Assembly: GCF_036365525.1 (NCBI RefSeq)
Contig: NC_090399.1
Coordinates: forward strand, 18,665,408 to 18,729,407
Length of the DNA stretch: 64,000 nt
Reading direction: 5' to 3'
Origin: Heterodontus francisci
Taxonomy: Eukaryota
Under the pieces are notes generated by a model, which made no database searches, was not told where the DNA came from, and saw only the letters and a list, made by a program, of their open reading frames with translations. Made by a program: the position numbers and the translations under genes. Of this stretch, positions 7,038-60,147 are shown piece after piece. Position 1 is the stretch's first letter, and each line of letters opens with the position of its first letter.

Positions 7038-7107
7038 ATGGGACATACAGTAATGAGTCAGATAGGACCCATTTACTATCCTATTCTTGCGGTTGTTGGA
7101 GTTCCTG
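7038..7107 (+). CDS. GPR139-like: GPR139-like GPCR gene A, coding exon 1 (MGHTVMSQIGPIYYPILAVVGVP + G)
   Basis: ATG at 7038, 70 nt, phase-1 donor CCTG/gtaag. Splices in frame to 20577 to give ...GVP-V-NLLAIV, restoring TM1 (compare GPR139 YYSLLLCLGLPAN). Predicted protein 326 aa, intron 7108-20576. No other exon-1 candidate was found within the intron. Confidence 0.75.
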
Positions 7108-8934
7108 GTAAGCTGTTAACTCAGCTGTTAATTTTGGAAACAGTGTTAATTGCGCTGCTGCAATCTGTATTATTTCTAACTGTGTGTTTAACACAGCTGC
7201 CTGTTCTATTCCAGCAGTTGAATGATGGAATATGCTCAGTCTCTGTACTTTCAGTCTTCCAGGAGCTGGATTTTATCTGTAACGATCTTTGTTTATCCCA
7301 CGCTGGTATTGTTTCTAGATTGTTCACTGCAATGAATGTATTAGGATCAGATGTCTGGAATAGGAGCAGCAGTCAGACCATCAGCAGCTGTTAACAGTTT
7401 CATGTTGTGGAACTAACCTGTACTGAATATTGTTACGAGTGTGTTTTTAGTGATTGACAATGAGACAGCTCACAGGCTCAGTGGTAAAAGGAGGTAGTTC
7501 AATCTTCGACCTCCCCAATAACATGGTTCAGTGTAACTGGGATTTCAATGTATTTATTGGTTATCGCAGTTATGAAATATTATTCCATTCTGTGTGTGTC
7601 TGATTTTGCTTCAGGGGTCAGGTTAGTGAACTAAGATTGCTGCTGACTCTTTCACATCTCCTTCTCTGCCTCACTGTGGGTGAAATCACTGTCACTGGGT
7701 TACATTGTAAAATGAAATGTGTTGATGTGATGTTGTATCAGTCTTCAATGTATCTGTTGGAATCATGAGTCCTTCTATTTATCTGTATATAAGTAGCAGC
7801 AATGATATTAGTGTTTTATGAGCTAAACAATCCCACCGTCTATGATGATTTATAATTCCAGGAGTAGGAATTGTAATGATTGTGAGGTGTGTTTGGAAGA
7901 GAATTTCAATTCTGTTTATTCCATGCCTTGTATACGAAATGAACAGTGTAGGTGAGCAGGTGGAGATTTGTGCGATCTGTAGGAACATTGAAATATTCAG
8001 AGGCCTCACCATTGAACAAATTGACTCTGAGAATAGGATCACTGAACAGGGGGCTGGTGAACAGAATACAGGCTCATGGTATTATGATGGAAAGGGATGG
8101 GAAAAGGATCATTAAGAGAGAGTACCAGATTGTGGAGAGCTAGAGGGAGGAGTGATAGAGAAAGAGACCTGAGGGAGTGGGAGAAAACATGCAAGAAGAG
8201 AGAGAGTGTGTGATAGCGGTGAGAATAATTCATTAGAATGAGCTGATGATCTTCCAGTACAATCCTGATGAGCAAATGTGAGATGAAGGTGTTATTAGAA
8301 TGTTGCCAGATTCTGAGAGTTTCATTGTACTGACTATGTTTATCATTTTCCGGTCCTCAGTCTGTTTCGCTGAATGTTGCTTCTTTCTTATTGACTGACT
8401 GAATACATGTACTTATAGAATATAACGCGAGATTTATTGTTCGTAATGTAAAACATAAGAATGAATCATAAGAAATAGGAGCTGGAGTAGGCCATTCAGC
8501 CCATTGAGTCTGCTCCACAATTCAACAACATCATGGTTGATCCATGGCCTCAACTCCACATTGCTGTAAAATTCTGCGTGAACCTGAGCTTCTGGTCACT
8601 TGTCACTTTAATTCTACATCCTGCGCTCAGTTTGACCTCTCTATCCTTGACCTCCAACGCCATTCCACAGGAACAGAACTGAATTTTTCAATTACACATT
8701 TTGCCGGTCGAAATCAAAATTGAGATTAAACAATTCAGATTATAAACACTGTTCCCATTTTCTGGGATGGCCTGTGGTGGTAATGGAGCATGGTTACACC
8801 AGAGTCACTGGGGCATTAATTTTATCATTCCTCTAGGGATGGACAGGGAGGTTGGGAGGAAGGTGCTGCCTACAGAATTACGAGGGAAGACGAGGGGTGC
8901 AGTGTATGTCACCCTTCCGACTTCATTCAGTTTA

Positions 8935-9905
8935 ACAAAGAACAGTACAGCACAGGAACAGGCCATTCGGCCCTCCAAGCTTGCGCTGATCTTGATGGCT
9001 GTCTAAACTAAAACCTTCTGCACTTCCACACACCATATCCCACTATTCCCATCCGATTTATGTATTTGTCAAGATGCTTCTTAAACTTCGCTATCGTACC
9101 TGCTTCCACCACCTCCCCCAGCAGCAAGTTCCAGGCACTCACCACCCTCTGAGTAAAGAACTTGCCTCGCACATCCCCTCTAAACTTTGCCCCTCGCACC
9201 TTAAACCTATGTCCCCTAGTAACTGACTCTTCCACCCTGGGAAAAAGCTTCTGACTATCCACTCTGTCCATGCCACTCATAACTTTATAAACCTCTATCG
9301 TGTCGTCCCTCCACCTCCGTCATTCCAGTGAAAACAATCCGAGTCTATCCAGCCTCTCCTCATAGCCAATGCCCTCCAGACCAGGCAACATCCTGGTAAA
9401 CATCTTCTGTACCCTCTCCAAAGCCTCCACGTCCTTCTGGTAGTGTGGCGACCAGAATTGCACGCAATATTCCAAGTGTGGCCTAACTGAGGTTCTGTAC
9501 AGCTGCAGCACGACTTGCCAAATTTTATACTCTATGCCCCGACCGATGAAGGCAAGCATGCCGTATACCTTCTTGACTACCTTATCCACATGTGTTGCCA
9601 CTTTCAGTGACCTGTGGAGCTGTATGCCCAGATCTCTCTGCCTGGCAATATTCCTAAGGGTTCTGCCATTTACTGTATACTTCCCATCTGTATTAGATCT
9701 TCCAAAATGCATTACCTCACATTTGTCCGGATTAACCGCCATCTGCCATTTCTCCGCCCAAGTCTCCAACCAATCTATATCCTGACGTATCCTCTGACAA
9801 TCCTCATCACTATCCGCAACTCCACCAAACTTTGTGTCATCCACAAACTTACTAATCAGAACAGCTACATTTTCCTCCAAATCATTTATATATACTACAA
9901 ACAGC
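8935..9905 (-). mobile_element. 5'-truncated CR1 LINE
   Basis: ORFs 9320..9952 (YINDL...KFVDDTK...RPHLEYCVQFWSP) and 9008..9280, plus the reversed tail aaagaacagtacagcacagg. Closely similar to 54010-54988. Confidence 0.92.
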
Positions 9906-10559
9906 ACCTGCAGTCGGGAACAGGGAAGGTCGAGTATGGCCTTCATACCCAAAGGCTAATTGAGGCCCTTATGTGGCGATTTACTGGTCCCATAAGGATC
10001 TCGACCGGTCACTGCTGATAATTTACAAGCGGCTGTTGGAATTTCTGCCACGTGAAGAGGCCGACCAGTAAAACCAGGCGGTCTCCATGTGGGCTAGTGG
10101 GTGCGTGGCCCTCTTGCTGGGGCAATCTGTGGCCCACAGAGGGCCCCAGTTGCAAATGCTGCACCTGTGCCAACACCCACCCCAATGCCCACCACAACCC
10201 ACCTCCCTCCGGATTGGCCCCGACGCTCCTACTCCCTCTTTCCTGTAGTCTGAGGCTCCAGCGTTGCTCCTGGTCCAGAGCATCATGCAGTTCCAGCAGT
10301 GGCCACCGGTTCTGGTGGCGCCGATGGCCTGCTGGGCTGCCGGCCCTCTGATTGGCCGCTTCTCTTGATGGCGGGATCCCCATCCTTAAAGGGATGGAGA
10401 ACACGGCGCCGAGCAGTTAATTGCCTATGCGCTGATAAATACAGACGGGGGTTCCCCAGAATGGCCGAAGCACGTTCCGTCATCTTTCTGGCCCAAGAGT
10501 CAGCAAAGTGTCCTAATGTTGCTTCAGGGGTTTCCATCCTGCCTGCCAATCCTCTGTGA

Positions 10560-10960
10560 CTGACAGCAGTCAGAGATGGATGGACACAGAGATGGAGAGG
10601 GGGATGGCGACAGATAGGGCAGAGGGGGATGGATACACAGCGGGAGAGAGGGGATGGGCACACAGGCGAGAGGGGGGATGGACACAGAAGGGGGATGGGG
10701 GATGGACACAGAGAAGTGAGGTGGATGGACACAGAGTGGGAGAGTGGGATGGAAACAGAGGGGTAGTGGGGGATGGAAACAGAGGGGGATGGAGACGGGG
10801 GAAGGGGGAGGCGGATGGAAACAGAGGGGGAGGGGGGATGGGCACAGAGGAGGGTGAAGGGGATGGACACAGAGGGGGGAGAGAAGGTGATGGACTCAGA
10901 GGGGGAGTGAGGGGGATGGTGTCATATAGGGGACAAACACAGTGGGGGTGGTGGTGATGG
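10560..10960. repeat. G-rich minisatellite, ~23-bp unit (ggggatggacacagag...)
   Basis: Repeated gatgg(a/g)(c/a)acagag cores; accounts for the Pro/Ser-rich and Gly-rich ORFs here. Confidence 0.8.
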
Positions 10961-12129
10961 ATACAGTGACAGTTATGGAAACAAAGGCGGTGGATAGAGG
11001 GAGAGAGAGTGCTCACTATCACTCCTACCAGATGGACATATATCTGACATCTCCGCATTTCTACATTAAGTGTGGGGGCAATATTGACTACTTATGCAAG
11101 CAAAATCATTGCCAGGTATCTCACTGTATATGGAGAAATGTATTTTCAAGCATTTGTGTTTTGATGGCATTCGTTTGGTTATACACTTTATATACAGATT
11201 AGTTGCCTCCATGTCTGTAGCTGCGTCAAAACTTTTGTCAAATATCCGTAGTACAACATGTCGGTATCTATCACTGTTCTGGCCCAGTGTAGCAATCCCT
11301 GTTGGCTATATAGAATCCCTCCCTGGGAGTGGAGGGGGTGTGAGCTGGTGTTTGAGGTGGGGGATTCCGTATTGGCAGGTGGTCCACATCCTTGGGCTCG
11401 ATCTGCCATTCTCTATCACTTTTCCAGGCCACTGGAGCCTTCTCCTCTTTTCCAGATTTTCCATGTTTTTCTCTCCCTCTGTTGTTCTGCTGGAATCATT
11501 TACACCTCACCTGGGCACATTTTCTGTTTCTTTAATTGTCCAATTCACCTCACTCCGTCATCCCTTTTGTCATTGAATCACACCTGCCCTGCACCCGATC
11601 ACAGACCTTCCCCTTTGTTCTTTCCTCCCCTTATATCCCAGTTTTCACTGTCTCTATCATTGCTTTAAAGCTGTTAATTTCCAATATCTTCCAATTCTGA
11701 TGAAAGGTTATTGACCTGAAACTTTGGGCTAAATTGTACCAGCCCTATGATGTCGGGGCTGTGGCAGGGGGGCCCGAAACATTCTAGAGGGTGAGGCCCG
11801 CCGGCCACCCCAGACGTCGCATGTGTCCCGTCCCATTTTACCATCAGTGGCGGAACCTCGGTGCAGACGTCCACCCCCACTTCTCCGCCTCCTACCCCAC
11901 CAACCATCCCTCCTCCCCCCGCTGCTCGTCGGTGAAACCCGAATTTAAGTATGTGAAACGCGAATTAACTTGCCTGATTCTGCATCCTGCTGCTGTTCAC
12001 TCCTTATTCTTGATTTTTCACGGAACCTGCGGCTGTTAGGTTCTATCCCATTCATCAATAAGAGAAGCTGGTTGGACAGCAGAAGAGGGAGCAATCGCTG
12101 ACAGAGCAAGTAAATCTTTCTCAACCGGA

Positions 12130-14270
12130 GTCTCGACTCTATATAATGGAAGGGACGTGGCAGGAGGGATGGGATTACTGGGGGCACAGCACTGCATAGT
12201 TGAAGGGAAGTGGGGCGGGGGATTTACTGGGGCACAGCTCTGAATAGTTGAAGGGAGGTGGAAGAGGGGATGGGATTGCTGGACGCACAGCTCTGCATAG
12301 TTGAAGGGAATGGGGGATGGCTTTACTGGGGCACAGCTCTGAAAAGATGAAGGGAGGTGGGAGAAGGTATGGGATTACTGGGGGCACAACTCTGCATAGT
12401 TGAAGGGAAGGGCGGGATTGCTTTACTGGGGCACAACTCTGCATTGCTGAAGGGAAGTGGGAGAAGGGATGGGATTACTGGGGGAACAGCTCTGCATTGC
12501 TGCAGGGAAGTGGGAGAAGGGATGGGGTCACTGGGGGCACAGCCCTGAATAGTTGAAGGCAGGTGGGAGACGGGATGGGATTATTGGGGACACAGCTCTG
12601 CATAGTTGAAAGGAGGCGTGAGGAGGGATGGGATTACCGGGGGCACTGCTCTGCATAGTTGAATGGAAGTGGGGTGTGTCGGGGGGGGGGGGGGAGGGAA
12701 TAACTTTCCTGAGGCACAGCTCTGAATATCTGAAGGGAGGTGGGAGAAGGCATGGGATTGCTGGGAGCACAGCTCTGTATAGTTGAAGGGAGGTGGAAGA
12801 AGGGTTGGGATTACCGGGGTCACAGCTCTGCATAGTTCAAGGGAGGTGGAAAAGGGATGGGATTACTGGGGGCATAGCTCTGCATAATTGAAGGGAAGTG
12901 GGGGGTGGCTTTACTGGGGCACAGCTCTGAATAGCTGAAGGGAGGTGGGAGAAGGGAGGGGTTACTGGGGGCACTGCTCTGCATAGTTGAAAGAAAGTAG
13001 GGGGATAGCTTTACTGGGGGCACAGCTCTGAATAGCTGACATGAGGTGGGAGAAGGGATGGGATCACTGGGGGCACAGTTCTGCAGGCATGAAGGGAGGT
13101 AGGAGTGGGGTTGGGAATACATAGGGGCACAGCTCTGAATTGCTAAAGGGAGGTGGAAGAGGGGATGAGATTACTGGGGCCACAGCTCTGTGTAGTTGAA
13201 GTAAGTGGGGGGGAGGGTGGCTTTACTGGAGACACAGCTCTGAATAGCTGAAGGGAGGTGGGAGAAGGGATGGGATTACTGGGGACACAGCTCTGCAGGC
13301 ATGAAAGGAGGTGGAAGAGGGGATGGGATTAATGGGGGCACCGCTCTGCGTAGTTGAAGGAAGTGGGGGCATGGATTTACTGGGGACAGAGCTCTGAATA
13401 GCTGAAGGGAGGTGGGAGAAGGGATGGGATTACTGGGGGCACAGCTCTGCAGGCATGAAAGGAGGTGGGAGTGGGGATGGGTTTACTGGGGCCCAACTCT
13501 GAATAGCTGAAGGGTGGTGGAAGAGGCGATGGGATTGCTGGGGCACAACACTGAGTAGTTGAAGGGTGGTGGAGGAAGGGATGTGGTTACTGGGGTCGCA
13601 GCTCTGTAGGCCTGAAGGGAGGTGGGAGTGAGGATGGGATTATTGGGGGCTCAGCTCTGCATTGTTGAATGGAGGTGGGGGTGGCATTCCTGGGGGCATA
13701 GCTCTGCATAGTTGAAGGGAGTTGGGGGTTGGGATTACTGGGGGCACAGCTCTGTAGACCTGAAGGGAGGTGGAAGAGGAGATGGGATTGCTGGGGCACA
13801 GCTCTAAATAGTTGAAGGGAAGTGGAAGAGGGGATGGGATTACTGGAGGCACAGCTCTGCGTAGTTGAAGGAAGTGGGGGCATGGATGTACTGGAGACAG
13901 AGCTCTGAATAGCTGAAGGGAGGTGGGAGAAGGGATGGGATTACTGGGGGCACAGCTCTGTAGACCTGACGGGAGGTGGAAGAAGAGATGGGATTACTGG
14001 GGGCACAGCTCTGAATAGTTGAAGGGAGGCGTGAGGAGGGCTGGGGGTACAGCTCTGCATAGTTGAAGGGAGTTGGGGGTGGCATTACTGGGGACATCGT
14101 TCTGCATAGTTGAAGGGAGTTAGCGGATGGTATTACTGGGGGCACAGCACTCCATAATTGAAAGGAGTTGGGGGATGGGATTACTGAGGGCACAGCTCTG
14201 CAGAGTTGAAGGGAGGTGGGGGGAAGTGTTAGTACTGGGGAAACAGCTCTGCAGGCATGAAGGGAGGTAT
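12130..14270. repeat. G-rich minisatellite, ~48-54-bp unit, about 40 copies, inside the Harbinger
   Basis: Unit gggattactgggggcacagctctg(c/a)atagttgaagggaggtgggagaagggat. Confidence 0.95.
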
Positions 14271-14599
14271 TGCGTACCCTCCCTTTGCAAACGGTGGTCA
14301 CTCTGCGCTATTTTTTGTTTGTGTGTGTGAAGGAGCAATGATATGCCAGTCACCCTGTATGTGGGGAGGGTGCCAGAAACGGTCGGAGTGTAAAGGTTAT
14401 TTGGCTGGTGGGGTCAATCGATGCAGCTGGTAGAATCTTTATGTAGTCAAGCTGTGCCACTTAGTGTGAGCTAAGATGGGAAATGCCATGCCACACCACA
14501 TAGTTGATCCATGAAATCACCTGATGTACCCGTCAACAACAATGCCTGCCCTGTTAGGAACTTTCAAGTAAGTGAAGGATACAGCATTATTTGTCACAT

Positions 14600-15420
14600 G
14601 GAGTTGGATATGGCTTATCCTAGATTGTGTGATCGGCTTCTCCAGAGGATCCATATGCACCGCAGGCAAAATCAACAGGCAGGTGCAGCCCACATAGAGC
14701 AGCAGCCCCCAAGGGGAGATCGCCTATATAGAACGCCGCACATCTACAGGTCCCACATGACATGCCAGCGGTTGTCAGAGCAGCAGTGTCAGAGGCGAAT
14801 GTGGATGTAGAGAGAGGTGGTGACATATCTCTGTGCCCTTCACAACGATGACCTACAGCTGACGGGTTTCGGTGGATATCCTTTGCCTGTGGTCCTCATA
14901 GTGATAGCTGTCTTAACCTTTACGACTCTGCATAATTTCAGGGGACCATTGTGGGGTCACACAGTTTTCGTGCACCACTGCATCAGGTAGGTCACCGATG
15001 CCCTGTACCGGAGGGCCGGTGAGTATGTCCGCTTCAGGGCAGACCCTAACAGCCAGATCCAGAAGGCCATCGGTTTCGGCAACATTGCTGGATAACCAAA
15101 GGTGCAAGGGGTAATAGACTGTCCCATGTGGCCATCAGGCCTCCCAACAGGGTACCAGCTGGAGACATAACGATTAAGGGATTCCTGTCAATCTTGGTAC
15201 AGCTGGTATGTGATCACTAGAGATGCTTCATGAAAATCTGCGCCCGCTTCTCAGGCAGCTGCCATGACGCCCGGATCCTGCGCCAGTTTCAGCTGCCAAT
15301 GCTGTTCACTGAACTGGCTCAAATGGAGGAGTGGCTTCTTGCAGGCAAGGGATACCCCTTGCAGACATGGCTCCTGACAAAACTGGGAGATGGCACCAAT
15401 GCTGCAGAGTTTTGAAGAAG
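14600..15420 (+). pseudogene. Harbinger (HARBI1-like DDE) transposase relic
   Basis: IYRSHMTCQRLSEQQCQRR, VQGVIDC, ICARFSGSCHDARIL and WLLAGKGYPLQTWLLT. Frameshifts and stops. Confidence 0.88.
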
Positions 15421-16948
15421 GTATAGCGATTGAACTTTTCACAGTGTTGTGTTGCCCATGCAGACTCATTTGAGTCACTGTGGTTTTTGGAAACGTTTGC
15501 AGCTGCTCCTTCAGGCTGTCACTTCTGCAGGAGAAGCCTGACTGGAAGAAGGCTGCTGATCACACTACCCTTTGGCTGTGGATGACTTTATTTGGCAGTT
15601 GTCAGGAAGCAGGTGCTTGTGCACTTTAAATAGCGACCCAGTACCTGCTACACATCTAAGCCAACATCCATCGTGGCTTCGGATGTCACGCCTCTCCCCA
15701 CATAATATGAGGGAGCGTCGCCGTGATGCGAATGAGTCCTCGTGTGAAATATCATGTGGGCTCAGCGGAGGCCGCTGTATACGGACAGACCGCCGATGAC
15801 AAAGCGCACCGCCATGAGTCGCAGTGCGCCAGTAAAACCCAGCCCATAAACTTTGTTTCTGTCCCCACAGATGCTGCCTGACCTGCTGAGTGTTTTCAAC
15901 ATTCTCCTGATTTGATCAGATTTACAGCAGTCTCAGTATTTTGTTTTTGCTCCAATGTTTAGGCCTGGATATTAACAGGTGTGAGTGACATAGCTGGGGA
16001 GCGGAGTTTCTGAGTTAAACTCCACAATCTGCCTCTTTTATCATTGACAGTATCCCCACCCTGACATCAGTCTGATTGACAGGACAAGCTTCCTGTCGGG
16101 CAGCGGCATTACTGGAGTTGGCCTCAGGACCAGGGAGTTCCTAACCATGACTCTGAGGCATGGGGGCCTGTCTGATACCGGGGGTGTCCAATCCCCAACT
16201 CCGGAGGCGGAGGGAGTGGAGACATCTCCGATCAGTGGGCTGTCCTGGGAGCGGTCTCCTATGCTGGAGCGTGGTCCATGTCCAGGGGAATGGGGAAGTG
16301 AGGGGAAGAGAAGGAGGGAGAAGGAGAGAGGATGTGGGAAGGGGAGGGGGAGGTGGAAAGGGATGGTGTCTGATTCCCAACCTCGGAATGGTGTGGTCTC
16401 CTATCCTGAAGCATTGTCCAATCCCGGGGGTGATCGAGCTCGGGTCGAGGTCTGATCTCAGCTGGATGCGATCCTGGGCGGAGTGTGATTCCGTGGGTAT
16501 TGATCTGGAGGTGTCTGTTTCTGACGGGGTTCAATCCCGGGTGTTTAGATCAGATTCCACGTGTACATCCATTACCAGGGTGGAGCGGGGCGGGAGGGGG
16601 GTTGGTGGTTGGTGGTGTTGTTATCTATCCCGAGGCGGGTCCGATCCCGGGGGAAGTGTTACATTCCGGGGAGTGGGTGTTGATGCTGAGGGTTTCTGAT
16701 CACCAATCCCCAGTGTCTTTGTATGGGCCGTGGAGTCTAATGGAGAAAGCCAGCCGGGCACAGTTAAACTTGGAAAACAGATGAAATCAGAGATTTCCAG
16801 ACTCATTAAAATATTTAAATTACCAACCTGCCTCTTGGGACTGGTTTCTGCCACTCTTCCTGTCCAGATTCCGTTCAACCCAGAAGTGGGCGAGTTGGGG
16901 CCGTGGTGAGATTTTTAAATATTAACCACCTACCCGCCCCCTTTCCAC

Positions 16949-19900
16949 TAAAGCCTGGCTTCCTGCCCGACCCAAACCCGACCGCTCCCACAACTGACTA
17001 TATGTGTCGGGTTCGGGGTCGGGTCGGGTCTGTATTCCGTGTCCAGCTTTCGTGTCCGGGTCTGGACTGTATTGCTTAGCTTTGGTAGTCTTCGTGCCAC
17101 TTGTCATGTCTGCTTATGTGAAAACCACAATATAAATACATATTATGTGTGAAAACGTAAGTGTGACATTTTTAAACCAAACTTTACTGTTATGATTTTT
17201 TAAAAATGTGGGAACACATGTTTTATATTTCCAGACTGGTGTTAAGTCTGGAATTTTTTATAAATTGCATTTAGAAACATCGAAAAAATAGGAGCAGAGT
17301 AGGCCATTCGGTCCTTCTAGCCTGCTCCGCCATTCATGGCTGATCATCCAAACTCAGTAACATGTTCCCGCCATCTCCCCATATCCCTTGATCCCATTAA
17401 CCCTAAGATCTATTATCTAACTCACAGGTATGTTGGCCTTCATAGTGAGCCGATTCGAGTACAGGAGCAGTGATGTCCTGCTGCAACAATACAGGGCCTT
17501 GTTGAGGTCACACCTGGAATATTGTCTGTAGTTTTGGTCTCCTTAGCTGAGGAAGGATGATCTTGCGACAGAGGGAGTGCAGCGAAGGTTTAACAGACTG
17601 ATTCCTGGGAGGGCGGAACTGACGTATGAGGAGAGATTGAGTCAGTTAGGATTAGATTCGATGGAGTTCAGAAGAGTAAGGGACGATCTCATAGAAACCT
17701 ATAAAATTCTAACAGGACTTTGCAGGGTAGATGCAGGAAGGATGTTCCTGATGGTGTGTGAGTCCAGAACCAGGGGTCATAGTCCAAGGATACGGAATAA
17801 ACCTTACAGGACTGAGATGAGGAGAAATTACTTCACCCAGAGAATGGTGAGCCTGTGGGATTCGTTACCACGGAAAGCAGTTGAGGCCAAAGTATTGCAT
17901 GTTTTCAAGAAGGAGTTAAATATAGCTCTTGGGCAAAAGGGATCAAAGGATACGGGGGAAAAGCGGGAACAGGTTACTGAGTTGAATGATCAGCCATGAT
18001 CATAATGAATGGCGGAGCAAGCTCAAAGGGCCGAATGGCCTACTCCTGCTCCTATGTTCTGTGTTTCTATGTAACTCTTTCTTGAATATATTTAATGATT
18101 TGGCCTCAACTGCTTTCCTTGGTAGAGAATTCCACAGGTTCACTGCTATCTGGGTGGAGAAATCACTCCTCATCCCGGTCCTAAATGGCTTACCCCTTAT
18201 CCTTAGACTGTGGCCCCTGGTCCTGGACACCCCCGCCATCGGGAAAATCCTTCCTGCATCTAGTCTGCCCAGTCCTGTTAGAATTTTGTAGGTTTCTATG
18301 GCAATTCTTTTTAAAATGACTTTAGTGTATGAAATTCAATAATACAAATTAGAGGCTGCCTTCTCTGCCCAAAGGAAACCCAGTCGTAGATTGTAAGGTC
18401 AAGTCATATTTCAGTTATAGTGGCTGCCAAAATGGTACGAAATTTACTGGATAATTTATGTAACAGTCATGTGAGTTAAAATTAGCCTCTAAGGGAATAC
18501 TAATGTTTCATTTCATACTTAACACATGCTTAAAATATAATTTATGAACTTTTTTTGTTTTAACGTTGCAAGTACAGACTTGGAAAAATAGCTGTAGTGC
18601 CCTGCCCAGACCACCCTGATTGTGAGCGTGTTGATGATTTGTCTGAACTGAAAAAAAAACACCAAAAATTTTCATGAATTAGCTCTGCCCGGTTTTTGAA
18701 AGAGGACAAAAACAAATTTGTCTACCACAGAATTCCATGATGGATTGCTTATGTAGAAAGCCATGTTGTAGCTGTTGTGTGGTGTCCATCTGGGAAGCTG
18801 CCACATTATGATTGAAAGTGAGTGCCATTCACCACAATAATGGATCTTGTGGACAAAATCCACTAGGAATTATGAGATAAACCAAACCACAGGATCCAAC
18901 TTAATTAATTCTCATTACTGAGTGGGTGAGAGACTAACTCATACTCAAGTTATCTTAGTTTTGAGAATCCAGTGTTTCAAATGCAAATATTAAAAATGAA
19001 AATGCATAGAGCCAATATTTATTGTATGTAGTCTAGACGTTAATTGGCATTGTGCACACTTTTTTCGTATATACGGGGTTGGGGGGCGGGGGCGGAGAGT
19101 AGCGTTGAATAATCACATTTTACCATCCAAGTTTAAATTCTAAATCTTCCACAGTATCGAATTAAAACACCCTGGCATATTAATCTGCCGTTGCTGGCTA
19201 TATTAATCAATCTAATAGCTTGTGTTCCTTGAATGAAGTATTCCTCTGATCCCAAAGGGCTGGTGACCTATTCCATGGAGTGAATAGAGAGTTAGCTATC
19301 TCTAGAAACATCGGTTCATGTCAAAACCATTTTGAAGACATTAGAAAGTGCATTTTTCCATCAAATGTAGATAATTTCAAACAAGCTATAATGGCTGTAG
19401 AAGTAATGTTGTTTGATTTTCAAAAGCAAGCCTTTGCCCCATTACTTGCCAACTGATTGTTTCACAGTAGCAGACAAGTAGCATTGCAGAGAGAAACCCA
19501 TCTATCAGCTTAACTAAAAGAAAAAGTAAATGAAACCACATACGTGTAGGAATAGGCACGATGTTAGGTGGTTCTTTTCCCAGAGAATGTAGAGCCTCTG
19601 GAATTCATTGTCAGCTGGTGCAGTGGGTGCTGACTTTCTCCGTGGCTTCAAGATGGAGCTCGATCAGTTCCTGACTGTGAGAAAGATTGCGTCATATAAA
19701 AGATAAGTTTCTTTACAGGTAACACGTGGTCCATGTAATCTCCTGGACACGTTTTTGACTGCCAGGGCAGCAGGACATTGGAGAGGAAATTTTTTGAGTT
19801 TTACCCCACATTAACCAGGATTTTTATGCTTTTGCCACTCCTAGTAGATTTAAATGTGATTTAAGGAGAGGGAAGAGGTGTTTAGCCATGATGGTCCAGC

Positions 19901-20469
19901 TATGTGTGGCGCGGTCTTGATGGGCCAGCTAGTCTTCCTGTGTCATTTCCATCGGTTTGTAAGCTAGAAATTTCCCTCTAAACCTACTGAAATTGTACAG
20001 GGAGCCGAATGCAACAAATTCTACAAGTATCTCCTTCCTCAATATTGTAGAGGAAGAACTAAGTAGCAGAGGATCTAAAATAGACAAAAGTTGGTTATTC
20101 TCTCTGACAGCACCATGTCTGGGTTCCTGAACTGTCTGCTAATGCAAGAATAATGTTGGTGGCTTATCCTCACACTTGTTGACTTATCTGGTCTACCTTA
20201 GGCAACCTAGCAAAGTTTGGGAACTCTCTGACACAGCACGACTGATTTGGATTTCCCAATTGCACTACTAATTGGCATTCCCATTAGCAGGTGCTATTGT
20301 TTTCTTTTTAATCTACAACTTTTTTTCTGTTTCAAGAATATGTTTGACATTTTCAGGTCGGTCGGGCATGAAACAAAATTAAAGGACTCGGGCCGGGGTT
20401 GGGTTTGGGTTGGCTGTTGTCGGGTCAGGCCCTGGTTGGGTTTTAATTTTACACCCAAGCCAGACTTTA
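16949..20469. mobile_element. Non-autonomous hAT-type DNA transposon
   Basis: 13-bp TIR TAAAGCCTGGCTT / AAGCCAGACTTTA (one mismatch), 8-bp TSD CTTTCCAC (16941-16948) / CTTTCGAC (20470-20477), and subterminal CCCGA/TCGGG repeats. Absent from the homologous position in genes B and C. Confidence 0.85.
17270..18300. mobile_element. CR1 3' fragments in both orientations, nested in the hAT element
   Basis: ORF 17577..17999 (+; QRRFNRLIPG...YEERL...RTRGHS) and ORF 18000..18239 (-). Confidence 0.85.
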
Positions 20470-20576
20470 CTTTCGACCTAATTTTGGTGCTAAACTCTTA
20501 CCCTTACTGTCTGGGTCATATAAGGAGAATGTTTGATCAGTAATTTCCAGTCTCTTTTCCTTTCTCTCTCTTACAG

Positions 20577-21487
20577 TTAATTTACTGGCGATTGTGATCC
20601 TGTCCCGGGCAAAGTGCGGACTCTCCACCTGCACCACTCGCTACCTGGTGGCCATGGCAACGGCGGATCTACTGGTCATTATCACTGATGTCATCCTGAG
20701 GCGGATCAGCTATTATTATTTCCCGGGATCTTTCCTGCGCATCACCCCTGTGTGTAGTGTTGTCACTGTCCTCCTTCGTGCAGCCATAGACTGTTCTGTC
20801 TGGTTCACCGTCACTTTCTCCTTTGATCGATTTGTGGTCATTTGTTGCCAGAAGCTAAAAACTAAATATTGCACTGAGAAAACTGCAGTTGTGGTTCTAG
20901 CAACAACCTGCATTTTGCTCTGTTTAAAAAATATCCCCGTCTACTTTATATATGAACCTGGAAAGATAATTGACAATGTACCATGGGGCTGTTATGTAAA
21001 GCCAAGCGTTTATACTGAGCCCGGATGGGTGGGAGTTGACTGGTTTGATACGATTTTAACCCCTTTTGTTCCATTTGCTTCAATTCTGTTGCTCAACGCT
21101 CTGACAGTCAGACACATTTTAGTAGCCAGTCGAGTCCGTAAGGAACTGAGGGGCCAGAGCAAGGGAGAGAATCGCAGTGACCCAGAGATGGAGAGCAGAA
21201 GGAAATCTGTGATTTTACTCTTCTGCATATCTGGCAGCTTCATACTTCTGTGGTTGTTAAGTATTATACATTTCTTATATTATAGCATTACAAGAACCAA
21301 TACCAGTGATTACAACAATTCTGAATTTATATTGCAACAAGTTGGATTTATGCTGCGGACTTTAAACTGCTGCACAAACACATTTATTTATGGGGTGACA
21401 CAGTCCAAGTTCAGTGAACAGTTCAGGAGTGCGGTGAAATATCCGGTTACATCAATTATTCAATTAATTCATAAACATAACAACTGA
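20577..21487 (+). CDS. GPR139-like: GPR139-like GPCR gene A, coding exon 2 (TM1 end to C-terminus)
   Basis: Pyrimidine tract with cttacag acceptor ending at 20576, then a 911-nt open exon. Class A motifs YLVAMATADLL, ECL1/ECL2 Cys, DRF, P in TM5, FILLW and NTFIY, arranged as in GPR139/GPR142. Confidence 0.93.
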
Positions 21488-21754
21488 GAGCAGCCGAAAG
21501 GTGGGCTCCCGTGCTTCCAGTCCATGAATGGGGGGGGGGGGGGGGGGGCGGGGCGGGAGGTGCACATCTGGACAAACCCAGCCGAGAGCATGGACTGGAA
21601 GACAGGACCTGGGCCGAGGGAAAGGGTCCAGGCTCGGCACAGGAGCCGACAGTCCTGGTGCCTCAGCCTGGTTGCTGCTCGGTTGGATAGGGCCGAAACA
21701 AAATCTGAAGCAGACACTCCCCAGACCAAAGGCACCCAGTAGATAGGGAGCGCA

Positions 21755-22452
21755 GCACTGTCGTAGGAACAGTAATGAGGAAGCACTACACTGTCGGAGC
21801 AGAAGTACTGAGGGACTGCTGCACTGTCAATGGGCAGAACTGAGGGAGTATGGTACTGTCCGAGGGTTAGTACTGAGGAAGGGCTGCACTGTTAGACGGT
21901 TAATACAGAGGGAGAGCTGCATGGTCGGAGGGGCAGTACTGAGGGAGAACTGAACTGGCGAGGGCCAGTATTGAGGGAGTACTGCACTGTTGAAGGGTCA
22001 GTACTGAGGGAGTGCTGCACTGTCGGAGTGTCAGTACTGAGGCATGGCTGCACTGTTGGGAGTGTTAGGACTGAGGGGCTGCTGCACTGTCTGAGGGTCA
22101 GTGCTGAGGGAGTGCTGCACTGTCTGAGGGTCAGTACTGAGGCATGGCTGCACTGTTGGGAGTGTTATAACTGAGGGGCTGCTGCACTGTCTGAGCGTCA
22201 GTGCTGAGGGAGTGCTGCACTGTCTGAGGGTCAGTACTGAGCGAGTGCTGCTCTATCGGAGGGTCAGTACAGAGGGAGTGCTGCACCATCGAAGGGTCAG
22301 TACTGACTGAGTGCTGCACTGTCTGAAGGTCAGTACTGAGCAAGTGCTGCTCTATTGGAGGGTCAGTTCTGAGGGAGTGCTGTACTGTCTGAGGGTCAGT
22401 ACCGAGCGAGTGCTGCTCTATCGGAGGGTTAGTACTGTGGGAGTGCTGCACA
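21755..22452. repeat. 33-bp minisatellite (about 21 copies) amplified from a DeuSINE segment
   Basis: Unit gtcagtactgagggagtgctgcactgtcggagg. Runs directly into DeuSINE-like sequence at 22452-22730. Confidence 0.9.
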
Positions 22453-44089: not shown

Positions 44090-46612
44090 GGAAATTGGTG
44101 GATAAAAGCAATAAATGGGCAATTAGGAGAATTGGAGTAAGGAAATCAATAAATAGGGGCGATGAGGAGAGAACAGCAATAAATGGTAATTAGTCGAGAA
44201 CACCAATAAACGGGGAAATAGTGGGCAACAGCAATAAATTATGAATTAGTAGAGAACATCAATAAATAGGGAATTAGGGGAGAATGCCAGTAAATGGGGA
44301 ATTAGTCGAGAAAACCAATAAATGGGGAATTAGTTGAGAACACAATAAATAGGGAATTAGGGGAGAATGCCAGTAAATGGGGAATTAGTCGAGAAAACCA
44401 ATAAATGGGGAATTAGTTGAGAACACAATAAATGGGGAATTAGGGGAGAACACAATAAATGGGGCATTAATGGAGAAGACAATAAATGGGGAATTACTCG
44501 AGAAAAACAATAAATGGGGAATTAGGGGAGAACACAATAAATGGGGATTTAGGGGAGAACACCAATAAATGGGGAATTAGGGGAGAACACTAATAAGATT
44601 GTAATTAGTGGAGAACACCAGTAAACAGGAAATTTGTGGACAACGCCAATAAATGAGGAATAGGTGGAGTACATCAATAAATGGGGAATTAGTGGAGCAC
44701 ATCAATAAATGGGGAATTAGTGGAGAACAGCAATAAATGGGGAATTTGTGGAGAAAATCAATAAATGGAGAATTAGGGGAGAACGCCAATAAATGGAGAA
44801 TTAGGGGAGAACATCAGTAAATGGGGAATTAGTGGAGAACAACAATAAATGGGGAATTAGGGGAGAACACCAATAGATGGGGAAATAAGGGAGAACAATA
44901 GTAAATGGGGAATTAGTGGAGAACACCAATAAATAGGGATTTAGCAAGGAACAACACTAACTGGGCGAATTACGGAAGAACACCAATAAATGGGGAATTA
45001 GTGGACAACACCAATAAATTGGGAATAGGAGGAAACACCAACAAATTGGGAATTAGTGGATAACAGCAATAAAATTGCGAATTAGGGAAGAACAACAATA
45101 AATGGGACAATTGCAGGAGAAACCAATAAATGGAGAATTCCGGGAGGGCAGCAATAAATGGGGCGATTAGGGGAGAATGCCAAAAATGGGGCATTAGTGG
45201 AGAACACCAATAAATTGCATATTTAGCAGAGAACACCACTAACTGGGCGAATTAGGGGAGAACACCAATAAATGGGCAATTAGTGGAGTACACCAATAAA
45301 TGAGGAATTAGTGGGCCACATCAATAAATGGGGAATTAGTGGAGACACCAATAAATGTGGATTTAGGGGAGAACACCAATAGATGTGGAAATAAAGGAGA
45401 ACACCAGTAAGTGGGGAATTAGTGGAGAACACCAATAAATGGGGAATTACGGGAGGCCAGCAATAAATGGGGCAATTACGGGAGAATACCAAAAATGGGG
45501 AATTAGTGGAGAACACAAATAAATTGGGAATTAGTGGAGAACACCACTAAATGGGAAATTAGTGCAGAACATCAATAAATGGGGAATTATTAGAGAACAC
45601 CAATAAATGGGGAATTATTAGAGAACACCAATAAATGGGGAATTAGTGGAGTACACCAATAAATGAGGAATTAGTGGGCCACATCAATAAATGGGGAATT
45701 AGTGCAGAACATCAATAAATGGGGAATTAGTGGAGACACCAATAAATGTGGATTTAGGGGAGAACACCAATAGATGTGGAAATAAAGGAGAACACCAGTA
45801 AGTGGGGAATTAGTGGAGAACACCAATAAGTGGGATTTAGCAGAGAACACCACTAACTGGGCGAATTGGGGGAGAACACCAATAAATGGGGAATTAGTGG
45901 ATAACAGCAATAAATGGGGAATTACGGGAGGCCAGCAATAAATGGGGCAATTACGGGAGAATACCAAAAATGGGGAATTAGTGGAGAACACAAATAAATT
46001 GGGAATGAGTGGAGAACACCACTAAATGGGAAATTAGTGCAGAACATCAATAAATGGGGAATTATTAGAGAACACCAATAAATGGGGAATTATCGGAGAA
46101 CACCAATAAATGGGGAATTATCGGAGAACACCAATAAATGGGGAATTAGTGGAGAACACCAATGAATGAGGAATTGGTGGAGCACATCGATAAGTGGGGA
46201 ATTAGTGGAGAACAGCAATAAATGGGGAATTAGTAGAGAACTGAAATAAATGTGGAATTAGGGAAGAACACCAGTAAATGGAGAATTAGTCGAGAAAACA
46301 AATAAATGGGAAATTAGTGGAGAACACAATAAATGCAGAATAAGGGGAGAACACCAGTAATGGGGAATTAGTGGATAACACCAATAAATGGGGAATTAGT
46401 AGAGAACTGAAATAAATGTGGAATTAGGGAAGAACACCAGTAAATGGAGAATTAGTCGAGAAAACAAATAAATGGGAAATTAGTGGAGAACACAATAAAT
46501 GCAGAATAAGGGGAGAACACCAGTAATGGGGAATTAGTGGATAACACCAATAAATGGGGAATTAGTAGAGAACATCAATAAATGGGGCATTAGTGGAGAA
46601 CTCAATAAATGG
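44090..46612. repeat. 28-bp satellite, about 90 copies
   Basis: Unit caccaataaatggggaattagtggagaa, with block duplications such as ~46210-46390 versus ~46390-46565. Confidence 0.96.
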
Positions 46613-46614
46613 GC

Positions 46615-48632: not shown

Positions 48633-49543
48633 TCAGTTGTTTTCTTTATTCATTAATTGAATGATAGATGTAACTGGATATTTCACCAAACTTTTGACCT
48701 GCTCTCTGAACTTGGATTGAGTCGCCCCATAAATAAATGTGTTTGTGCAGCAACTTAAATTCTGCAGCATAAATCCAACTTGTAGAAATATAATTTCAGA
48801 ATTATTGTAATCCCCAGCATCTGTTCCAGTAATGTTATAATATAAGAATTCTATAACATAAACCAACCACAGAAGTATGAAGCTGCCGGATATGGTGAAG
48901 AGTAAAATCATGGACTTCCTTCTGCTCTCCATCTCTGGGTCACTGTGATTCCCTCCCTTGCTCTGACCCCTCAGTCCCTTACGGGCTCGACTGGTCACTA
49001 AAATGTGTCTGACTATCAGAGCATTGAGCAACAGAATTAAAACAAACGGGATAAATGGGGTTAAAACCGTATCAAACCAATCAAATCCCACCCATCCCGG
49101 ATCAGTATAGCAGCTTGGCTTTACAGCACAGCCCCACGGTACGTTGTCAATTATCACTTCAGGTTCATATATAAAATAGAAAGGGATGTTTTTTGAACAG
49201 AACAGAAAGCAAGTTGTTGCTGGAACCAGAGCCGCAGTTTTCCCAGTGCAATATTTTGTTTTCAGCTTCTGGCAACAAATGGCCACAAATCGATCAAAGG
49301 TGAAAGTGACGGTGAACCAGACAGAAGAGTCTGTGGCTGTACGGCTCAGGACACTGATAACACTACATACAGGGGTGATGTACAGGAATGATCCCGGGAA
49401 ATAATAATAACTAATCCGCCACAGTATAATTTCAGTGATAATGACCAGTAGATCCGCCATTGCCATGGCCACCAGGTAGCGAGTGGTGCAGGTGGAGAGG
49501 CCGCATTTTCCCCGGGACAGGATCACAATTGCCAGTAAATTAA
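48633..49543 (-). CDS. GPR139-like: GPR139-like GPCR gene B, coding exon 2
   Basis: The same cttacag/TTAATTTACTGGC acceptor as gene A. 911 nt open; about 79% amino-acid identity to gene A exon 2 by manual count; DRF and NTFIY present. Confidence 0.93.
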
Positions 49544-50764
49544 CTGTAAGAGAGAGAGGGGAAAATAATCTGGAAATTACTGACAAAACATTCTCCGTGT
49601 CTGACCTAGGCAGTAAGGGCATGATTTTAGCCCCCAAAACAGGTGGGTTGGTGGCAGGGTCAGAGGTTAAAATTTTACAAATCTCAACCCCGATCATAAC
49701 CCATTTCTGACTACCCCCCTCCCCCCACACCCGGGTTTAACGGAGTCGGGACAGGGTACGGACAGCCAACTGCTCCCAGCAGGTGGGTTGACAATTAATG
49801 TTTTAATGAGGCTGAAAGTCTCTGATTTAATCTGTTTTACAGTTTAACCTCTGACCGGCTGGGTTTCCCCATTATGCCTCACGCCACCTGCGTAGACACC
49901 CGGGCTTGGCGATCAGAACAGTCTCCCCACTCCAGGAGCACCCCCTACTCACGGGATTGGTCCCCACCACACCTGGGAATGGATCCCCCTCCAGTCTAGG
50001 ACTTTCCCCAGGCTTGGGCCCTGTCCTGGGATCTGACTACTCTTCTGGGATTGGATTCATGTCTGGCTCGGACCCCATCTTCCAGGATCAGTCCACACAT
50101 CGTGTTTTGGGTCATGCACTCCCCAGCCCCATCCCCCTCCCCAGACTCGGACCAGGCACCAGTACAAATCAGTGCCGGTTAGAGCGCCACACTTTTTTTA
50201 TTATTCAATTGTGGAATGTGGGCGTCGCTGACTTGGCCAGCATTTATTTCCCATCCCCAATTGCCCACGAGAAGGTCGTGGTGAGCTGCCTTCTTGAACC
50301 GCTGCAGTCCTTCGGGTGTAATTACACCAACAGTGCAAGTGGTATGATACAACTGTTTGGCTTACTCGGCTGAGTCAGAGGGAATTTTTTAAGAGTCAAC
50401 CAGGTGTTCCACTCCGAATGGTGACCCACACTCAGGGTGATTTTGAGCAAACTGAAACTGTCACTAATACTGCCACTCAGAGTTACCTGCACTGAGGTCC
50501 GATTCAAACAATGCACAATGTTCTACTCAAGGCAATAACCTGATCATTCTGCAAACCTATGAGTTACAGAGCTTTAAAACCACAGAGGTACTTCAGAATA
50601 TTTGATTTAACAAACTGATATCACTGAACAGTGTTCAATTCACTGAAAGGTGTCAGCATATCGTACCCATTAGGTCAGCCATGTAATGTAATCACATACA
50701 GAGTAAAACCAGAGACCAGCTCACATACAGATTTACACGACCATCAATTGTTATTGTCACTCAC

Positions 50765-50831
50765 CAGGAACACCAATGCCGGCAAGGATTAGGAAATAAA
50801 TTTTCCTGATACTGTAAATTGTTTCAAGCAT
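50765..50831 (-). CDS. GPR139-like: GPR139-like GPCR gene B, coding exon 1 (MLETIYSIRKIYFLILAGIGVP + G)
   Basis: ATG at 50831, 67 nt, phase-1 donor CCTG/gtgagt. Intron 49544-50764 (1221 nt); spliced protein 325 aa. Too short for the ORF track. Confidence 0.88.
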
Positions 50832-50917
50832 TTTCTTTGTTAAGTGATCTCTTCCTTTGTGCTGCATACAATCTCTCTGTATTAAACTCTGAGGCGATAC
50901 ATTCCTCCAGCCTGTAA

Positions 50918-50923
50918 TTTATA
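50918..50923 (-). promoter_or_regulatory. Candidate TATA box of gene B
   Basis: GTATAAAT on the minus strand, about 90 nt upstream of the ATG. Confidence 0.45.
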
Positions 50924-51787
50924 CCTTGTGGGATCGCCATGGGGATATTTGCTCAAATTGTTCAACTTGTTTTTTTTTTAACTTGAACAAACAGATTACG
51001 ACATCGAGTTCAGCCCATATTGTGATAGAATATATTTATTTCTGAGATTGAATTAGAAAACTGCAAAGAATGGACAATTTTGAACAGATTAATTAGTAAA
51101 AGAAAATAAATAAAAGCTATATTTTCCCACCAATGATGTTTTTTCATTCAAACACCATCAGTCCCATCTCTAGATCTCATGTTGTTTTCAGTGACATCCT
51201 TCACTCGACTGTGTCCATTCAGTAATAAAACTCTAAATGTTAGAGCGTCTCTCTCAGGCTGTTCTGCTGCATATGGGGATGTGGCTTCTCTCTTTAACTG
51301 AGGATATTCACTTAAGTGAGTTATTTGTGACTATACATTGCAGAATTCAATTAATACTGCATCTGAAACTAATTTAACACCACAAACTGATACAACATCT
51401 CTGCTGCCAATTCTTTTAGGTTATTCTTAGTTAAAGTTATCAAGTCACTGAGAGATACATTCTCCTTACCTAGAAACACTGCTGCAACTACTAATGCCAT
51501 TACAATGGCATAGACCATACCTTATTATACAAGAAACCTAGTTCCTTTTATTTTCATAATTGGCATTAGATTGGGATCCCACAATTGAATTTCCAATCAA
51601 TATAATCCTATACATGAAAGCAATCAATATGATGCCAGATGCAAGACCACAATTTATGTGTTATCCCAGAGACAAGTAATTAATATGATTCCAAATGCAA
51701 GCACCCCCACCCCACCCCCCGTACACCACCCACCCACCCTCCCCCCATTAGTCTAATTAATATCCCGGACCAGCCCCCAATTATATA

Positions 51788-57900: not shown

Positions 57901-58226
57901 GTTGCTTACAGCTGCAGACTGTATAAAGAGTTTATGTCAATAAAGCAGTAGGTGACACTGCGTTCAGTGTGAGATCTTGTAGCTGCAGTTTCTGAAGGTG
58001 AAAACTGGGGTGGTAGCATTATTCTGATCATTGATAGTAATCAGCAGCTTTAGTTCTCTTAGCCTTTTTTGGTGGCCCCATGACGCCTTCTTGTGAAAAC
58101 ATCCAGGTCCATGTATCCCGAATGAGAGCGTTTGCTCTAAAGAAAGGATTGGGGGAAAGAAAGACCTCACCTGACTTTCTTGTCAGCGGATTCTCTGTCA
58201 TGGAAGAGGTCATTGCAAGTCCTACA
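54989..58226 (+). mobile_element. 5'-truncated Gypsy retrotransposon (RT-RH-IN order) with probable 3' LTR at 57765-58226
   Basis: LSNAYLQL...PFGV...FLDDIL, LACDA, LTDHQTL and DSYSKWI...NGAAERRVQ. A purine tract ggggagggag precedes TGTAG...CTACA, which contains AATAAA. Many stops; a short CR1 tail is inserted at ~56170-56255. Confidence 0.85.
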
Positions 58227-59236
58227 GAAAGTAACAACTAATTATCATAAGTCTAAGAGTTTGAGTAAAATAGACGAAAGACGAATGAAACCTTTCTGTA
58301 TGTCATTAAAAAGCTAAATGTTTGAACAATGTCAATAAGGGCTAGGACTAGCCTAGTTTGACTCCAGATGGTGGTGTTGGTGGGTTGGGTTTTGCATTCT
58401 TAAATGCCCATCCCTACGTTGCTGCGAGGAAATGATAACAAACGTTTCATGACTTTAATGTGTTTTGGTACTGTGACAGGGGTGGAAAGCTGATTAGAGG
58501 GATTTGAGCATGGATAGAGAACCGTCACCAACGTCAGTAACATGGGAGCTAGGATGGTACTTGGCCCCATCCATCCGAGCAGCCACCAAGCTGAGGCGTC
58601 TGGCTGTTAGCTTCTCCACCAGCCTTGCCCCTCTCCCTCAGCTGGGTCCCGTCTCCCCACCCGAGGCTCAATGCTGGACACATCCAGATGAAAAACCCCA
58701 CCCACCAACACCACCGACTCTCTCAGAGGGAGACAGAGGGATGGCATTGATCGGTTGGGAGGAATTGAAGAGAGACGACTCAATAAATTTTCCCAAAAAA
58801 ATCGATTCACACCAGAAGATTTACAAAATCTGCAGCAATTGTTTTTTGTGCGAATAAGTTTTGTTTTCTGAGCAGATGTGAAGAGCTGAGAATGGAATGA
58901 GTGGAGGTGGATTAGAGGCACAGGATGCTGTTCCTCCTCCTGTCCTTCATGGGGCACTCTGATTATCCACATGCCTGTTTTCTGTTCGCTGCTCCAAAAA
59001 TCACTTCTTGCCATCTTCTCCGCTACCCTTTGGGTTGTGTGACCTCCAACACACCCTGCCAGTGTTTTGGGGGTCATCCAGCTGTCTGTTACATCTTGCC
59101 TACTGCCCTGCGGCTCTTTGGTGTGTGTGACCCAGTCCATCCCCAACCAGTGTATTTCTGGTCATCCAGCTGTTGGTTACCTCTTGCCCGTTGGGGATAA
59201 ATATTACAGCCATGGACTGGAAATACTGGGCTGCCC

Positions 59237-60147
59237 TCAGTTTTTTAGTTTATTTATTAATTGAGTAATTGATGTAACTGGATATTTCACCGCACTCTTG
59301 ACCTGCTCTCTGAACTTGGACTGAGTGGCCCCATAAATAAATGTGTTTGTGCAGCAACTTAAATTCAACAGCATAATTCCAACTTGATGAAATATATATT
59401 CGGAATTGTTGTAATATCTGGGATCTCTTCCTGCAATGTTATAATATAAGAATTCCAGTACATTTACCAACCACAGAAATATGAAGCTGCCGGATATGGT
59501 GAAGACTAAAATCAGAGACTTCCTTCTGCTCTCCATCTCTGGGTCACTGTGATTCTCTCCCTTCCTCTGACCCCTCAGTCTTTTACGGACTCGACTGGCC
59601 ACTAAAATGTGTCTGACTGTCAGAGCGTTGAGCAACAGAATTAAAACGAATGGGGACAATGGGGTTAAAACTTTATCAAACCAGTCATATCCAACCCATC
59701 TGGGCTCAGTAAAATAACTTGGCTTTATATAACAGCCCCATGGTAAATTGTTGATTATCGATCTAGGTTCAGATATAAAGTACATGGGTACATTTCTTGA
59801 ACAGAACAGAATGCAGGTTGTTGTTAGAACGACAGTGGCAGTTTTCTCAGTGCAATATTTTGTTTTCAGCTTCTGGCAACAAATGGCCACAAATCGATCA
59901 AAGGAGAAAGTGATGGTGAACCAGACAGAACAGTCTGTGGCTGCACGACACAGGATGACAATAACACTACACACAGGGGTGATGTGCAGAAAAGATCCCG
60001 GGAAATAATAATAAATGATCCTGTACAGTATGACCTCAGTGATAATGAACAGTAGATCTGCCATTGCCATGGCCACCAGGTAGTGAGTGGTGCAGGTGGA
60101 GAGGCCGCACTTTCTCCGGGACAGGATCACAATCGCCAGTAAATTAA
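59237..60147 (-). CDS. GPR139-like: GPR139-like GPCR gene C, coding exon 2 (exon 1 probably beyond position 64000)
   Basis: Same acceptor, 911 nt open and the same 7TM motifs. The intron stays collinear with the gene A intron up to the window end. Confidence 0.92.

Follow-up and report, generated by a model that had tools for sequence, protein, structure and literature searches.

A very large receptor family with a diversifying predicted ligand pocket in the shark Heterodontus francisci, a candidate repertoire of chemical sensors

Three receptor genes and their nearest relatives

The window analysed here is a stretch of 64,000 nucleotides (nt) in the 6.0-Gb genome of the shark Heterodontus francisci (contig C29:18665408-18729407), and its six-frame translation contains three long reading frames, all of one receptor type, amid fragments of retroelements and satellites. 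They are the second exons of three paralogous genes, here termed A, B and C (Table 1), which belong to the far larger family that is the subject of this report. A preliminary description of the window, prepared from its letters alone, had proposed that these are intact GPR139-like receptors, left open among mostly broken elements and diversifying at ligand-pocket positions as a candidate chemosensory family. The structural part of that proposal is borne out in coordinates, frames and boundaries: each exon 2 follows an AG acceptor, remains open over 911 nt up to a TGA stop codon and is separated from the other two by no insertion or deletion, at pairwise identities of 86-87% in nucleotides and 76-79% in protein, and the neighbouring retroelement frames are fragments. 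Gene B is annotated as protein P0013 and encodes 325 amino acids (aa) in full. Four of eight sequencing runs guessed to be RNA (word shares 0.00-0.08) were compared with gene B, and X3 alone among these four carries its spliced joint, in a contig from another organism that skips exactly the intron of gene B at GT..AG and represents a spliced transcript in a relative. The two exons of gene A, when joined, form an open frame of 326 aa, and exon 1 of gene C (67 nt, phase 1, open) lies 9.6 kb past the end of the window (L129:9683-9617).

Table 1. Features of the receptor genes in the window, and loci elsewhere that repeat the arrangement proposed for gene A
Feature	Position	Strand	Remarks
Promoter and 5' region, second ('A') type	6577..7037	+	Alignment with 22 non-redundant homologues
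Coding exon 1 assigned to gene A: N-terminus and most of TM1	7038..7107	+	70 nt, phase 1, GT donor
Gene A intron, 13,469 nt	7108..20576	+	Repeat-filled; B-type intron piece at 16694-16890
Gene A exon 2: end of TM1 to C-terminus	20577..21487	+	911 nt, open
Gene B exon 2	48633..49543	-	911 nt, open
Gene B intron, 1,221 nt	49544..50764	-	GT..AG; exact 50765-49543 join in run X3 contig
Gene B coding exon 1	50765..50831	-	67 nt, phase 1; N-terminus same as protein P0013
Gene B promoter and 5' region ('B' type)	50832..51200	-	TATAAA at 50923-50918; homologous upstream of gene C exon 1
Gene C exon 2	59237..60147	-	911 nt, open
Gene C intron, 3' part	60148..64000	-	13,469 nt overall, continues beyond window
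Four recurrent A-type/A-like loci	L212/L007 (C41), L213 and L222 (C28), L214 (C31)

With respect to receptor class, Pfam 7tm_1 is the single domain match of the three proteins, above its cut-off, and the AlphaFold2 model of P0013 has seven transmembrane (TM) helices (predicted local distance difference test, pLDDT, 87.8). Judged by domain, predicted helices and motifs, A, B and C are genuine exons of class A (rhodopsin-like) G protein-coupled receptors. Among solved structures, GPR139 (7vug) is the best match in both sequence and fold, with an E value of 2e-8 to human GPR139 and 20% identity in the fold match of P0013. GPR139 is also the nearest characterised relative within a wider GPR139/142-related clade, in which the family groups with non-mammalian paralogs. 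The term GPR139-like is adequate in that sense, but the likeness is weak and the genes are not GPR139 orthologs. The genome has its own GPR139 at a single locus (L137), with one match to its motif. L137 is almost the same as the human protein (E value 1.8e-164 to the human structure), and the family is 27-32% identical to L137. A putatively GPR142-like gene (L139) is 56% identical to L137, and there are two further single-copy relatives, L131 on contig C25 and L132 on C3. In quick trees, which carry only Shimodaira-Hasegawa-like approximate likelihood ratio (SH-aLRT) support and leave out unrelated class A outgroups, the family is sister to a salamander gene (SH-aLRT 99), followed by the L131 and L132 clades, with GPR139 and GPR142 outside, and a single clade of the family plus GPR139 is rejected (approximately unbiased test, p-AU 5.9e-98, 22-row quick tree). 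The sister gene is represented by 20 amphibian clusters, each from a different species, and by one sturgeon protein. By these sequences, the sister of the family is an orphan gene recorded once in each amphibian species, outside the GPR139/GPR142 pair. Orthology to GPR139 is ruled out by the separate locus and by the clade test, and the database label 'probable GPR139' is wrong for these genes. Automatic names on other members (P0003, P0051, P0140, P0165 and P0179) are likewise misleading: CCR3-like, capa receptor-like, tachykinin-like receptor 86C and vasopressin V2 receptor-like.

This distinction bears directly on the ligand. Human GPR139 responds to L-Trp and L-Phe. Activation of GPR139 by Trp and Phe requires F3x33, H5x43, W6x48 and N7x38 (PMC5430874; papers are cited here by PubMed Central accession). 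If H5x43 is taken as sequence position 5.42, W6.48 alone is kept in A, B and C, which have R/R/R, D/D/D and F/F/I at the other three positions. Because the family is not orthologous to GPR139/142 and three of the four agonist residues are lost in A, B and C, a Trp/Phe ligand cannot be transferred to it, and a transfer of the aromatic amino acid ligands that the preliminary description had named for GPR139 and GPR142 is not supported. The family does share with GPR139 and GPR142 a short N-terminus, DR(Y/F), N5.58 and F6.44/W6.48, and its main exon seems to start at the same position in TM1. It differs from them, beyond the agonist residues F3x33, H5x43 and N7x38, in the loss of P6.50 and in having C3.25 together with a cysteine in the second extracellular loop (ECL2). 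Non-mammalian GPR139/142-related subtypes have been named GPR210A and GPR210B, in addition to gar and coelacanth subtypes (PMC6504862), and sharks are absent from the main text of that paper. The family nests among such orphans but differs from them in that they look single-copy and that the pocket of the L131 clade is conserved. Three further GPR139-related orphan lineages occur in non-mammalian vertebrates (the L131, L132 and P0234 clades), and in the L131 clade the retained pocket is acidic (E2.61, D3.29, D7.36), a hint of a basic ligand.

Size, range and diversification of the family

Of 13,540 candidates in a protein search, 130 were scored; all 130 are at least 75% identical over almost their full length and 122 are stop-free, in a search that is biased towards good copies. 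Exact genome matches number 1,504 for a 20-nt motif in the third intracellular loop (motif 1) and 4,895 for a 26-nt motif in TM3 (motif 2), with 0 for the control in each case, and the family is thus counted in thousands rather than in a few copies. Since motif 2 is missing from 33 of 98 motif-1 loci, the family total must be above 4,895. An exon 2 was counted as intact if it has an AG acceptor and 285 or more open codons. By this definition, 98 of the first 100 motif-1 places divide into 58 intact, 30 frameshifted and 10 with stop codons, and the loci of this sample that carry both motifs are intact in 40 of 65 cases. Among the first 100 motif-2 places 75 are intact (22 of 26 already sampled and, by a strict test, 53 of 74 new), and gene B is the best match of all 74 new loci among six references, the others being GPR139, the GPR142-like gene, two single-copy relatives and the salamander gene. 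An intact share of 62-75% corresponds to about 3,000-3,700 open second exons genome-wide, or about 2,300-2,800 once copies that are at least 99% identical are subtracted, in an extrapolation from first-listed, non-random contigs that concerns exon 2 alone and may include uncollapsed haplotypes.

Family copies are clustered, in both orientations and on many contigs, and broken copies lie beside open ones, which is birth and death. Sequence homology between loci extends no further than 100-400 nt beyond exon 2, which argues against transport by a mobile element, and transposon-borne amplification was rejected, there being no shared mobile cassette around exon 2. Some copies that are at least 99% identical lie megabases apart (L019-L022 and L025, at 33-42 Mb of C29) or on different contigs (L017 on C1848 and L024 on C48), and represent either very recent large duplications or assembly duplicates.

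Beyond this genome, a public protein search returned 2,318 clusters at 90% identity, and the named ones among the best 120 are all from sharks. More distant members occur in catsharks, bamboo and zebra sharks, skates, a stingray and Callorhinchus, and a chimaera protein nests within the family in quick trees. Subfamilies that are merely 50-60% identical are mostly open and are common to sharks, rays and a chimaera. The Pfam models for OR, V1R, T2R and class C receptors have zero matches to the family, with 7tm_1 alone passing, and while the TAARs have no Pfam model of their own, the best relatives of the family are GPR139-type. The lineage-specific expansion proposed in the preliminary description, unrelated to the OR, TAAR, V1R and V2R families, is supported.

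Selection was analysed in 58 sequences and 291 codons, after removal from 91 intact sequences of 14 with indels or low identity and of 19 near-duplicates. The codon code reproduces the IQ-TREE M0 likelihood (-14520.2), site posteriors are naive empirical Bayes values on scaled fixed branch lengths, and the pocket is a generic list of 38 class A positions that was fixed before the results were seen. The ratio of nonsynonymous to synonymous substitution rates (omega) is 0.61 under M0. Twice the log-likelihood difference (2dL) is 262 for M2a against M1a, with 9.9% of sites at omega 3.0, and is 231 for M8 against M8a and 276 for M8 against M7. Of the 20 sites with P>0.95, 10 lie among the 38 pocket positions and 7 among the 41 positions in extracellular loops; the outer non-pocket class (60 positions) has 1, the inner TM class (98) has 0 and the intracellular class (54) has 2. 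Substitutions are therefore not spread uniformly, the pocket (10/38) standing apart from all other TM positions (1/158; Fisher p=2.5e-7) and from the outer non-pocket positions (p=2.6e-4). Excess amino-acid change falls at 2.61, 2.65, 3.29, 3.32, 3.33, 6.51, 7.35, 7.36, 7.39, 7.43, ECL1, ECL2 and ECL3, and with variable synonymous rates 15 selected sites are left, 14 of them on the outer side.

Recombination, for which the evidence is marginal (18 of 300 permutations), does not readily account for the signal. When neutral evolution with recombination was simulated five times on segment-specific trees, 2dL values were -4 to 22, with 0-3 sites, and three real gene segments, each on its own tree, gave 107, 57 and 54, each significant. 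The pattern recurs in 34 family proteins of other sharks, in which no TM class varies as much as the pocket (entropy 1.69x the mean, p=1.4e-5) and site variability correlates with the site omegas found here (Spearman 0.74), in contrast to 51 proteins of the single-copy L131 clade, in which the pocket is least variable (0.59x) and E2.61, Y3.33 and D7.36 are invariant.

Among A, B and C themselves, 20 of the 291 codons differ three ways, and 9 of these are in the pocket (38 positions) and 6 in extracellular loops (41 positions). The manual Ballesteros-Weinstein numbering of the preliminary description agrees with motif anchors in both positions and residues, and the concentration of differences that it noted in pocket and loops stands. 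Two of its sites do not carry over to the family as a whole: 5.38, which is F in 48 of the 58 paralogs and under no positive selection family-wide, and 7.42, for which the posterior reaches P=0.81 at most. On the cytoplasmic side, mean omegas of 0.40 (inner TM) and 0.57 (intracellular) indicate purifying selection, and the activation core (D3.49-R3.50, P5.50, F6.44, W6.48, N7.49 and Y7.53) is kept in 57-58 of 58 paralogs. The four cytoplasmic motifs that had been called nearly invariant are all present in A, B and C; among the 58 paralogs they occur in 28 (KCGLSTCTT, which is less fixed than A, B and C would suggest), 44, 48 (SDPEMESRRKS) and 50 (TQSKF). On the basis of these codon comparisons, the predicted ligand pocket is under strong diversifying selection and the predicted G-protein face is conserved.

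What the family may sense

We propose that the family, with its about 4,900 or more genomic places, may be a repertoire of chemical sensors, a proposal for which belief and doubt are at present about evenly balanced. The ligands would be small molecules or short peptides that originate outside the body, a different one for each paralog, the ligand site would be the orthosteric pocket under ECL2, and all paralogs would signal via one shared G protein, for which the kept activation core would account. The sensing cells would be situated in nose, mouth, skin, gill or gut and would each use one or a few members, and this is the least certain step. The narrower proposal, that this is an additional chemoreceptor family of vertebrates, confined to cartilaginous fishes, that arose from a neuropeptide-type orphan receptor and comprises about 2,300-3,700 intact genes in this shark, is put forward tentatively and falls somewhat short of an even chance. 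The likeness to the OR, TAAR, V1R-ORA, V2R-OlfC and T2R families extends to large clusters, birth and death, a nearly intronless seven-TM exon, a variable pocket and a conserved cytoplasmic face; the difference is that there is no family relationship, and the origin would be an independent one from a neuropeptide-receptor-like clade.

As reported in PMC10869828, cartilaginous fishes have 20-62 olfactory receptor genes (mean 43.8), fewer than any other vertebrate group. The largest vertebrate total reported there is 2,514, which the estimated size of the present family at least equals. Such small repertoires are surprising beside the large olfactory organs of cartilaginous fishes, a puzzle that the family makes testable. 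If the chemosensory proposal is true, the family would match or surpass the largest olfactory repertoires, and shark smell and taste could no longer be held to depend on a few dozen receptors. The family is apparently undescribed, as no published description of it is among the matches listed in the literature searched, a search that most subscription papers lie outside.

Several observations weigh against a chemosensory role. The FPR and MRGPR families, which serve in immunity and at barriers, show the same signature. Two subfamily sets of 16 and 12 sequences are under significant selection (2dL 34 and 60), but their pocket enrichment is not significant (1/36, p=0.19; 1/38, p=0.48), and in one small subfamily set two of the four selected sites are intracellular. 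Copies at least 99% identical make up 19 of 77 and 12 of 53 open copies in two samples, and an open exon 2 alone is no proof of a working gene. Of 392 TATA-anchored B-type promoters, 89, which all lie on one contig, have an O/E-type site beside the TATA box; the A-type promoters sampled have none. Sites for O/E and homeodomain proteins are features of olfactory receptor promoters (PMC8213819), and olfactory expression in a catshark is described as dominated by V2Rs (PMC10116579; also PMC11979771). The first of these two catshark papers probed just the four known receptor families.

As to these promoters, the search used 11 pattern classes on two promoter types, with samples picked by query likeness so that conservation is biased upward. 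Both types have a TATA box near -90 and a common TGTTTGTTCA element near -165. In one C29 subclade an O/E palindrome (perfect in 7 of 2,000 shuffles) occurs together with TAATGA-type sites, and the palindrome is a feature of this subclade. Run X1 covers promoter DNA and has no intron joint among those listed, and it also has an unspliced low-depth V2R-type contig; its family signal was not counted as expression, as it may be carried-over DNA. The basal V2R-type exon L175, which a small tree points to as the likely v2r1, has 1, 1, 0 and 0 contigs in X1, X3, X4 and X8, and was used neither for nor against an olfactory role. The genome has V2R-type clusters on C11 at 64.6-65.2, 108-111 and 115.7-116.1 Mb (L143-L180), with ~58 full-length open 7tm_3 exons, somewhat above the 32 canonical v2r genes of the catshark.

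The sequence evidence is equally compatible with an innate immune or barrier role. The diversified pockets, carried by leukocytes or mucosal cells, would then detect peptides and metabolites of microbes or parasites. An omega near 3 in pocket and loops, as in an arms race, fast turnover with recent near-identical copies, and an olfactory-type promoter site that is not family-wide are all in keeping with this role. FPR, MRGPR and the nematode Srw receptors are lineage-specific clusters with pocket diversification; FPR and MRGPR differ from the family in their separate ancestry and in their far lower copy number, and relatives of the family score on Pfam Srw/Srx, with gene B having no Srw match. 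If the family were immune, it would be among the largest diversified germline receptor families in a jawed vertebrate. We consider this role less likely than a chemosensory one. Against it, no ETS, RUNX, IRF, NF-kB or octamer site, searched with crude patterns, is common to half of the promoters of either type, and the relatives of the family are neuropeptide-type orphan receptors. A further candidate role is reproductive or social recognition, in which receptors in gonads, sperm or nose would respond to self-made peptides or pheromones that are polymorphic. It would be in line with the kinship of the wider clade: GPR139 has been linked to the MIP/sex peptide and FMRFamide receptors (PMC12208981), which are kin of the wider clade in the Atlas neighbours as well, the fold is common to peptide receptors, and the selected sites include peptide-contacting loops. 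Thousands of receptors would, however, need a matching diversity of ligands, of which none is known, and we regard this role as improbable.

The count and the pocket variation might also be produced by neutral amplification in repeat-rich chromosomes, through relaxed constraint, gene conversion and uncollapsed haplotypes. In keeping with this, 41% of one sample is broken, near-duplicates amount to 23-25%, ~18 of the 130 protein-search hits are on contigs numbered above 51 that are probably unplaced (from a hand-copied list), and there is the marginal recombination signal. Against it, omega >1 survives the M8a null and the recombination controls, inner TM and intracellular sites are under purifying selection, loci share no mobile cassette, and the 50-60%-identical subfamilies remain mostly open across sharks, rays and a chimaera. 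Hence neutral amplification is largely refuted family-wide, and is very improbable as the general explanation, but it may hold for part of the copy number.

Gene A and the repeats of the locus

The exon at 7038-7107 with its flanks (6577-8076) has a promoter type that differs from that of B and C, which share one type. The same promoter type is found in L109 and L113, ahead of exons merely 55% identical to A, and 6577-8076 is 76% identical to the L113 gene. Since four other loci also have the A-type promoter and exon 1 upstream of an A-like exon, at a distance of 6-19 kb, an orphan exon is less likely than a recurrent mixed gene type, and exon 7038-7107 is probably spliced to exon A in a gene of mixed type. 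The window and the next 20 kb hold no exon 2 of the subfamily to which exon 7038 usually belongs. The presence of the A-type promoter and exon 1 ahead of two exon subfamilies suggests that promoter and N-terminus are swapped between subfamilies. The first coding exons are also less alike (0.77-0.80) than the promoters that precede them (0.83-0.89) in the L181-L240 alignments, a hint of N-terminus diversification in a sample picked by likeness over promoter plus exon 1. The TATA-like site of gene A (6947-6952) reads TATACA, where 20 of the 22 non-redundant homologues have a TATA(A/T)A match, and gene A may be weakly expressed.

The introns of A and C are equal in length, and have in common the last ~95 nt, a short intron piece and scattered out-of-register repeats; the equal length is probably a coincidence. 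In the C5 cluster the introns (L035, L037, L044, L049 and L053) are filled by tandem copies of an 84-nt unit that was seeded by sequence close to where the B-type intron starts. Between genes A and B, fragments like those of long terminal repeat retrotransposons (32251-34849, with an RNase H-like match) are ringed by AT-rich degenerate 51-52-nt repeats at ~28000-40400, which include several inverted arms. Satellites are present at 12149-14220 (53-nt unit), 21745-22451 (33), 25828-26276 (52), 41089-41467 (47) and 44169-46613 (28), and the 52-nt type is also found after the L113 stop codon and again ~16 kb past the window.

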